Assembly (NCBI GenBank): GCA_965113315.1
Contig: OZ220372.1
Reading direction: 5' to 3' (one strand)
Source: Podarcis vaucheri
Taxonomy: Eukaryota
DNA length: 64,000 bases
Notes under the pieces: model-generated
Told to the model about the DNA's origin: nothing
Database searches by the model: none
What the model saw: only the letters and a program-made list of their open reading frames with translations
Position numbers and translations under genes: made by a program
Shown: positions 38,762 to 40,735 of the stretch, piece by piece
Layout of the letters: the number at the start of each line of letters is the position of its first letter
Numbering within the stretch: position 1 is the stretch's first letter

Positions 38762-40484
38762 GTAAGCTTCTGGTTTTGTTTTAGCAGTTCTTACTTGAAA
38801 ATTTGTCTAATAGAATTTTCCAATTCTCACAAAGCAAAAAAATGAAATGGAAAAAAACTTCATCCCTGAAAATTCTGGAGTTTTAGGTCTCATAAAATAT
38901 GGGTCCCTGATATTAGTATTCTCCTAAAGAATCTTCTCAAGGTGTGTAGGCTCTTTCACTTAGCAGAACACTTGATAAAACCAAAGTATTTCCATCCTTT
39001 GAAATAACTGTTCTGAACTGGGATTAAGGGGAAGCACAGAGTTTTGAATGAAAATTCTTTTTTTAAAAATACAAACCTCTGCCTTATACCTAAAATTTCT
39101 GGGCTGCTGCATTTAAGTACCCTACAATAGCTTTGTCAGCTGGTCTGAAACTATGACCAGATAATTGGTTTTAACAGCTCTGTTCTGCTATTTGTTTTGT
39201 GAAGGATGCAAGCTAACAAGGGAAAAGATGGTCCTTTTTAGTCTGTATCTGCTAGTGTGTGTGTTTTTAGAATGCAATCTACAGCTATTTCTGAAGTTCT
39301 GTTTTCAGAAGTTGTAATACCTGATTTTAACAATACAAATTCACATTTGCAAATATCTTGGCCTTTGTGACAATGAAACATTTCCTGCTTTCCAGCCAGT
39401 CTAGAAACAACTAATGTTAGTGGAAAGGGGAGAATATTCAGTGGGAAATGACCAACTTCCTTAACATAGCAGTCTCTTTTCCATATGTTATGATCAACTT
39501 TCAATTGGAAAACTGCCATATTCTGACTTTTTTGAACAATTGAATTAGTATGCTCCCTTTCAGTTAAGGCTGGAACACCACTGAATCATGGGAAGATGGA
39601 TAGGGAAGTAAAAAATGATTGATTGGTAAATTTGCATACAATCTGGTTTGTTTGCAGGAAATAATTCTCTGCTTATTGGTAATTTCTGGCTCTTACATAT
39701 CTCTGATTCATATAGTGCAGGTTTCTGTGAAATGGAAGGGTGCATTGGTTTGATACATCAGGGATAATACACCTCCTACAAATTGATTTTAAAATTAGGA
39801 TTTATTGAATCTCGCCCTCTGTGCCTATAACTCAATCTCTCTATATTTCTGAGTATTTTTGCCTGTAGGATGTCCCTCACTATTTCCTGTATCTGCAGTA
39901 GGCCTATAAAATGTACTGCAGGTGAAATGGTAAGTATGTAAAAAGGGCTCTGGTGAGTGGCCTTTGCAGAACATTTTTGAAAAATTAATTTTTAAGAAAC
40001 CTTTATTCATAAGCACAGGGTTTTTCATTGCAAGGCTTTGTTTAAAGTGACACTAAACAGAAGTAAATGGAGTGTTACGGGTCAGAGACTAGCTGTGGAC
40101 TCTTTCCAGTACTAATTTTTTACAGCAGAGGGCAGGCAGGGATGCTGAAACAAGCCTCATACCTCCTTTCTCACAAGGAGGAAAGGTAAGTGTGTCTAAC
40201 AAGTATTTGGTTTGTAGTCTAGCTAGTCTCTTACTTTATTTTTCTCCATTTATCTTCAGCCTGGGATTCAATCATATACCATTATGACTAAAATCTTCAT
40301 ATGTTCCCCCTGATTCTGTTCCATTATAATATATATAAATGGTGAACATAAAAACCTTTAACTGTTGGTTCCTCACTTCTTGCAAAGGCCTTGCAATGGA
40401 AGACCCATGGGATACATTGATGAAACAGAGTGACTGAGGGTGTCCTCCCTCTTCTTTTTGCTTCCACTTCTTCTTTTCTCACAG

Positions 40485-40509
40485 GTCTACCCGTCTACTC
40501 CCTTCTTCG
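40485..40509 (+). other. Candidate 25-nt micro-exon / alternative 3' splice site upstream of exon 4
   Basis: ~38-nt pyrimidine tract (40443-40480) + ACAG|G acceptor, followed 25 nt later by a TCG|GTGAGT consensus donor. Confidence 0.45.
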
Positions 40510-40577
40510 GTGAGTAACGCCAGCAGCCTCTGCTCGCTTTGAGACATTTAGAGTCTGAATCGTTCTTTTAATTTAAG

Positions 40578-40735
40578 GTACCCCAGAGTTCATGGCACCC
40601 GAGATGTATGAGGAGAAATACGATGAATCCGTTGATGTATATGCTTTTGGGATGTGTATGCTTGAGATGGCTACGTCTGAATATCCTTATTCTGAGTGTC
40701 AAAATGCTGCACAGATCTACCGTCGAGTGACCAGC
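40578..40735 (+). CDS. WNK1: WNK1 exon 4 (158 nt)
   Basis: tttaag|GT...AGC|gtaagt; (G)[52 protein letters not shown], ends phase 0. Confidence 0.97.

Follow-up and report, generated by a model that had tools for sequence, protein, structure and literature searches.

A strong acceptor ahead of the weak exon 4 acceptor of lizard WNK1: a probable decay-linked alternative 3' splice site

Does WNK1 hold, beside its internal promoter, a splice site through which the kinase-active form alone could be lowered? WNK1 is a chloride- and volume-sensing kinase, and the balance between its full-length form (L-WNK1) and KS-WNK1 is explained by promoter choice. The gene underlies a syndrome of hypertension as well as a sensory neuropathy (PMC3365125). 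The question is raised by the sequence directly before exon 4 in a 64,000-nt stretch of Podarcis vaucheri DNA (the window), in which a preliminary description had proposed that a strong acceptor and a 25-nt micro-exon form a poison switch for full-length WNK1.

Sequence comparisons supported the assignment of the gene to WNK1, as the preliminary description had it. All 73 of the 73 exon 3 residues are identical to WNK1 PDB chains, with WNK3 scoring lower; two full-length WNK1 proteins, mapped to the window and the 100 kb that follow it, recovered the expected WNK1 exon series; and the best named matches of exon 1, among the best 120 of 1,318, were from gecko and cobra at 82 to 83% identity. 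Exon 3 (38541..38761, on the plus strand like all features below) ends after base 1 of the activation-loop glycine codon. An intron of ~1.8 kb separates it from exon 4 (40578..40735; 158 nt), which is followed by exon 5 (55487..55575; 89 nt) and exon 6 (56646..56865). The coding part of exon 4a, where KS-WNK1 starts, lies 10.6 kb 3' of exon 4 (51368..51454); its frame of 29 cysteine-rich codons is intact, with the cysteine cluster following a hydrophobic block, and its donor scores 10.5 bits. The cysteine motif of exon 4a and KS-WNK1 has been described in PMC6014176, and the KS-WNK1 promoter has been placed within intron 4 (PMC6014176, PMC3365125). Introns 1 and 4 also carry CpG-rich stretches with related stop-free frames (~13480-14900, 44480-45150, 46650-47200, and 48560-48950), which are probably transposon-derived repeats. 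Farther downstream, we take a long WNK1 exon at window-based positions 64903-66120 to be the WNK1-specific HSN2 exon, and a frame at ~63260-63560 is presumably exon 8b-like.

A second 3' splice site is present in intron 3, 93 nt 5' of exon 4. Its CAG (40482..40484) is preceded by a pyrimidine tract (40443..40480; 36 of 38 positions are pyrimidines) and by a predicted branch-point-like TGACTGA (40431..40437; candidate adenosines 40433 and 40437). Using crude acceptor and donor models, each trained on 21 real sites of the same gene, we found that this alternative acceptor reaches 11.9 bits and ranks first among the 11,112 plus-strand AGs in 164 kb, relative to -1.6 to 8.5 bits for the 21 real acceptors (leave-one-out). 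The exon 4 acceptor, which has an adenine at -3, scores 0.3 bits (rank 19 of 21), so the contrast of a strong and a weak site drawn in the preliminary description was borne out. On the minus strand, 2 of 11,705 AGs attain 11.9 bits, and no other real acceptor has an AG scoring >7.4 bits within the 200 nt upstream of it. The alternative acceptor is thus well beyond chance. It also has five UCUU/CUCU words at -45 to -4, relative to zero to three at the 21 real acceptors, a number that is partly expected because any long CT tract yields such words.

A high score is nevertheless no proof of use, since 8 further nonannotated AGs score above the best real acceptor, and AGs that look strong but go unused are frequent in introns. 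Other strong nonannotated acceptors or acceptor-plus-donor pairs in the WNK1 introns were found at 12418, 16824-16864, 31603-31616, 43781, 44469, and 59318, none of which adjoins a weak real acceptor. Three real WNK1 acceptors are equally weak (58073 and, in window-based numbering, 78872 and 80337, at 0.9, -1.6, and -1.3 bits, respectively) and are without a strong upstream rival. The tract and AG before exon 4 could be an unselected cryptic site, i.e., a CT-rich run that arose by chance next to an AG and that is silenced or produces splicing noise with no regulatory role. We regard this explanation as unlikely, if still deserving of weight, given that the top-ranked of 11,112 AGs sits exactly beside one of the weakest real acceptors. 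CpG retention, as had been pointed out before, also argues against it: the 93 nt between the two acceptors hold 5 CpGs, relative to 2 across the remainder of intron 3 and 0 to 2 upstream of each of the 20 remaining acceptors (Poisson P, 0.003, yet 65 of 1,763 segments reach 5). A recursive splice site, which regenerates a strong donor upon splicing, was considered as a separate candidate and rejected, as the donor rebuilt at the AG scores -1.2 bits versus 3.6 to 12.4 bits for real donors.

Use of the alternative acceptor alone would extend exon 4 by 93 nt (40485..40577), and translation would end with G-LPVYSLLR at an in-frame TGA (40511-40513), giving a predicted protein of 401 residues. The distance from the stop to the next junction is 222 nt, and to later junctions 311 and 531 nt. 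Under the decay rule, a stop counts as premature when it lies >50 to 55 nt before a later exon junction. The candidate micro-exon (40485..40509) behaves similarly when joined to exon 4, with a stop within 12 codons and 124 nt before the next junction; joined to exon 5, an outcome that the preliminary description had missed, it leads to a premature stop located 58 nt and 278 nt ahead of the next two junctions, respectively. Joined to exon 6, the frame stays open and exons 4 and 5 are missing. Every predicted premature stop satisfies the 50- to 55-nt rule, and acceptor use would likely lead to nonsense-mediated decay (NMD). The coordinates and reading frames reported earlier were all correct (branch motif, tract, AG, 25-nt segment, donor, and 68-nt mini-intron), as were the three outcomes predicted from them and the NMD-compatible position of the stop. 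Judging from kinase architecture, the products would lack the APE motif as well as a large part, or the whole, of what remains of the kinase C-lobe and would be inactive. Since intron 3 contains no A[AT]TAAA hexamer (the first downstream is at 42033), an escape from decay via nearby polyadenylation is unlikely. In agreement with the earlier proposal, KS-WNK1 would be spared, given that it starts downstream at exon 4a.

Traces of such a product were sought among 615 proteins, comprising the best 120 of 1,318, 120 of 407, 120 of 5,948 (a search restricted to ≤2,000 residues), and 150 of 23,100 matches plus cluster members; clustering hides isoforms in a set of this kind. Exon 3 is covered to its end in 400 of these proteins, of which 61 have a noncanonical continuation. 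A caecilian RefSeq WNK1-like isoform, XP_029455793.1 (393 aa), ends with G-HPISILR-stop, which agrees with the lizard G-LPVYSLLR in 5 of 9 columns (G, P, S, L, and R, of which the leading G is dictated by the junction); the alignment contains one gap, and V/I and L/I are exchanged. This tail scores 15, relative to ≤2 for the other 60 noncanonical tails. The same score was reached by 8 of 20,000 random genomic tails, i.e., ~0.02 would be expected over 61 tails, for a score that was designed after the match had been seen. Read-through of a GTRAG donor cannot produce Gly-His, so the caecilian tail is most simply explained by another acceptor, and its Arg-stop ending is what read-through of CG/GTGA would give. 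The caecilian isoform, known from its protein, is probably the product of the same event.

Past exon 4, a sister caecilian isoform no longer follows WNK1, which points to a split gene model; such a split may be the reason that a form of the decay type received a protein annotation in the caecilian only. A frog record likewise continues with Gly-His, after which no further alignment is seen. No amniote tail resembling G-LPVYSLLR was found among the 61 noncanonical tails, and searching with profiles built from the lizard and caecilian tails gave nothing further among the best 120 of 5,948 and the best 150 of 23,100 matches. The former result favors an unselected cryptic site, whereas the caecilian match speaks against it. 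We also noted 24 runs (7 organism labels, 10 studies) that contain 0.68 to 0.86 of 28 sequence words, 12 of them at 0.86. The expected share is ~0.47 to 0.49 for exon 4 alone and 0.82 to 0.83 for sequence from 40485, but a single substitution gives a similar share and the kind of run was guessed, so these runs were counted as no evidence.

Mammalian proteins diverge at the same junction in another manner. Eleven tails start with MF, and all nine named ones are mammalian; the mammalian isoforms of 386 to 405 aa end with G-MF and further residues, pointing to another event. These MF tails look like predicted read-through into intron 3. The human 393-aa isoform (UniRef100_F6UYG0), which is among the nine, was considered as the counterpart of the lizard product and rejected, because it ends with G-MFQVYLGA, most simply by intron 3 read-through. 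Like KS-WNK1, it diverts in the exon 3-4-5 region and has no full kinase domain, although KS-WNK1 arises from the intron 4 promoter rather than from a splice choice (PMC6014176, PMC3365125). Vertebrate WNK records that stop soon after exon 3 carry lineage-specific tails (9 mammalian, 4 fish type, 1 frog, and 1 rodent type). The exon 3-4 junction may thus be a recurrent point of diversion, with some of the tails possibly being annotation projections or genomic read-through.

Conservation of the element in mammals was not found, and there is as yet no sign that the event exists in them. The available part of the human NMD-event table in PMC7347940 has no WNK row, which is consistent with an unselected cryptic site; WWOX and XPC are present there, but the table is incomplete, as WIPI2, WRN, and ZNF91 are also absent. 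In the portions of PMC13078869 that were available, which deal with cassette exons only, the WNK1 events of supplements 6 and 3 (10 human and 12 mouse rows) include no 25-nt exon, and those seen in supplements 2, 4, and 5 (2 of 3, 7, and 8 WNK1 places, respectively) are all cassettes of other sizes. An intron 3 acceptor event is not among the nine alternative WNK1 exons in the available part of PMC3365125. The available supplements of PMC11632617 and PMC10123112 gave 0 matches for WNK1 and WNK2 in a search that had no positive control. More generally, no description of a decay-linked acceptor in WNK1 intron 3 was found in the accessible portions of the literature, in which subscription journals are thinly covered.

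In the three WNK paralogues of the P. vaucheri genome, the acceptor of exon 4 is ordinary and no donor-like site lies within 250 nt upstream; none of the three has an acceptor-plus-donor pair there, and one shows an AG at -145 that resembles an acceptor but is weaker. Searches of the genome with the intron stretch and with 881 nt upstream matched only the locus itself, which is no proof of rarity. Among 80 metagenome WNK loci kept from 431, 46 are interrupted by an intron at the same place; their sequences suggest an invertebrate, plant, or protist origin, with no vertebrate WNK1 intron among them, and none of the 80 carries anything resembling the upstream element. In 9 of these 46 non-vertebrate-looking loci, some of them near-duplicates, the acceptor has an adenine at -3, as in WNK1 exon 4. 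A hairpin over the acceptor tract was not supported at the 12 metagenome loci folded (z, -2.64 to +1.3).

The donor half of the proposed switch fared less well. The donor-like site (40507..40515), whose GTGAGT begins at 40510, overlaps the in-frame TGA and together with the alternative acceptor flanks the candidate 25-nt micro-exon, leaving a candidate mini-intron of 68 nt (40510..40577). It scores in the middle range, at 6.9 bits, which is below 13 of the 21 real donors and close to exon 4's own donor (6.8 bits). The score is equalled by 208 of 9,473 GTs, giving P ~0.07 for a chance occurrence within 60 nt, and loosely defined acceptor-plus-donor units number 7 on the plus strand, the present one included. 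The donor is therefore not clearly beyond chance. A weak local hairpin is predicted to leave it partly paired (mean unpaired, 0.33), and the RNA fold of the element as a whole is not significant (z, -1.46; 18 of 200 shuffles). Both the donor score and the fold are what an unselected cryptic site would show.

Geometry bears on the micro-exon as well. The adenosines 18 to 40 nt before exon 4 sit 33 to 50 nt from the donor, and the joint assembly of U1 and U2 needs a donor-to-branch distance above a limit of ~50 nt (PMC7969005). If the branch point of exon 4 is in its usual place, splicing of the micro-exon to exon 4 would be disfavored, because the spacing is at or under this limit. The same spacing could be turned around to make the micro-exon mutually exclusive with exon 4, in which case it would be joined either to exon 5, with a frameshift and decay, or to exon 6, in frame and yielding a long but kinase-dead WNK1 that lacks exons 4 and 5. 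Both splice sites exist, the donor is as good as that of exon 4, the exon 6 frame is open, and the spacing would enforce exclusion, as it does at the OGDH exons 4a and 4b, where the donor-to-branch distance is likewise at or under ~50 nt (PMC7969005). Unlike OGDH 4a and 4b, however, the WNK1 units are not duplicated exons, their frames differ, and the branch point is a predicted one. Given that none of the 400 proteins shows a join to exon 6 (one contributing search being limited to ≤2,000 aa), that no 25-nt WNK1 cassette appears in the available part of PMC13078869, that the caecilian product appears to read through the donor, and that the donor is predicted to be partly paired, we find a mutually exclusive micro-exon improbable. 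A spliced 25-nt poison micro-exon was accordingly not upheld as originally described, its donor being ordinary, whereas the signals of the acceptor half were confirmed and one amphibian isoform fits its predicted product. The evidence gathered from these comparisons favors the acceptor over the micro-exon.

The same pair of sites might act without being spliced. As a decoy exon, it would bind U2AF and U1 but rarely splice, slowing the removal of intron 3 so that the transcript is kept unspliced in the nucleus. The WNK1 unit, 25 nt long and complete with both sites in an intron of 1.8 kb, agrees with the description in PMC6097662, where the decoy exons of SF3B1 intron 4, OGT, and ARGLU1 are likewise short cryptic exons with both sites in introns of >1 kb, and the vertebrate WNK1 records that end just after exon 3 with MF-type tails hint at an intron that is slow to splice. 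On the other hand, the WNK1 unit is just 68 nt from the next exon, unlike these decoys, the acceptor seems to be genuinely spliced in the caecilian, judging from its isoform, and PMC6097662 itself argues that strong sites favor inclusion over retention. We thus consider a decoy function hardly likely.

The reading that we prefer, with a probability of about 0.5, places the acceptor with the NMD-linked alternative 3' splice sites exemplified by SYNGAP1 exon 11. Membership in this class is probable, since two of its defining features were found: an upstream acceptor, equipped with a tract and a branch-like motif of its own, competes by position with the productive acceptor, and its use would place a stop far enough ahead of a later junction to predict decay. 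At SYNGAP1 exon 11 (PMC7347940, PMC10164156), an upstream intronic acceptor likewise lengthens a coding exon and introduces a premature stop, with CU-rich sequence nearby and less productive message as the result. The extension is 176 nt in SYNGAP1 (437 minus 261 bp) versus 93 nt in WNK1, and the SYNGAP1 event is backed by RT-PCR, cycloheximide treatment, and PTBP knockdown, whereas the WNK1 site is known from its sequence. Only WNK1 has an embedded donor that overlaps the stop and a second promoter downstream in the gene.

On this NMD-linked reading, the second, stronger-scoring acceptor 93 nt before the weak acceptor of exon 4 would likely be used in a share of transcripts, in which exon 4 grows by 93 nt, translation halts after G-LPVYSLLR, and decay likely follows. 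Full-length, kinase-active WNK1 would drop, while KS-WNK1 made from exon 4a would be left intact. As the stronger of the two sites is also the first, the alternative AG is presumably held down under normal conditions, and a CU-tract-binding protein such as PTBP, suggested by the five UCUU/CUCU words of the tract, might be guessed as the repressor. In the case of SYNGAP1, the decay-linked site is promoted by PTBP and not repressed (PMC10164156), so the effect of PTBP on the WNK1 site could go either way. The donor that overlaps the stop is likely mostly unspliced because it is too near the probable branch point of exon 4; a role in defining or competing with the acceptors is more likely than that of marking a cassette exon.

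A broader and rather doubtful possibility is that the 25-nt unit, with its donor and stop overlapping, is a tetrapod-old three-way switch at the WNK1 activation loop of nonmammalian tetrapods. Its outcomes would be productive exon 4 splicing, decay upon read-through of the donor, and an in-frame jump to exon 6 that produces a third class of WNK1, long and kinase-dead. If this were true, the ratio of active to inactive WNK1 would be set after transcription, beside the KS-WNK1 promoter, and mammals would divert at the same junction by another route. The class of mechanism to which we assign the NMD-linked acceptor is well known, and its occurrence in WNK1 intron 3 is apparently undescribed. If real, the decay-linked acceptor of intron 3 would give the lizard a posttranscriptional way to lower only the kinase-active form of WNK1.
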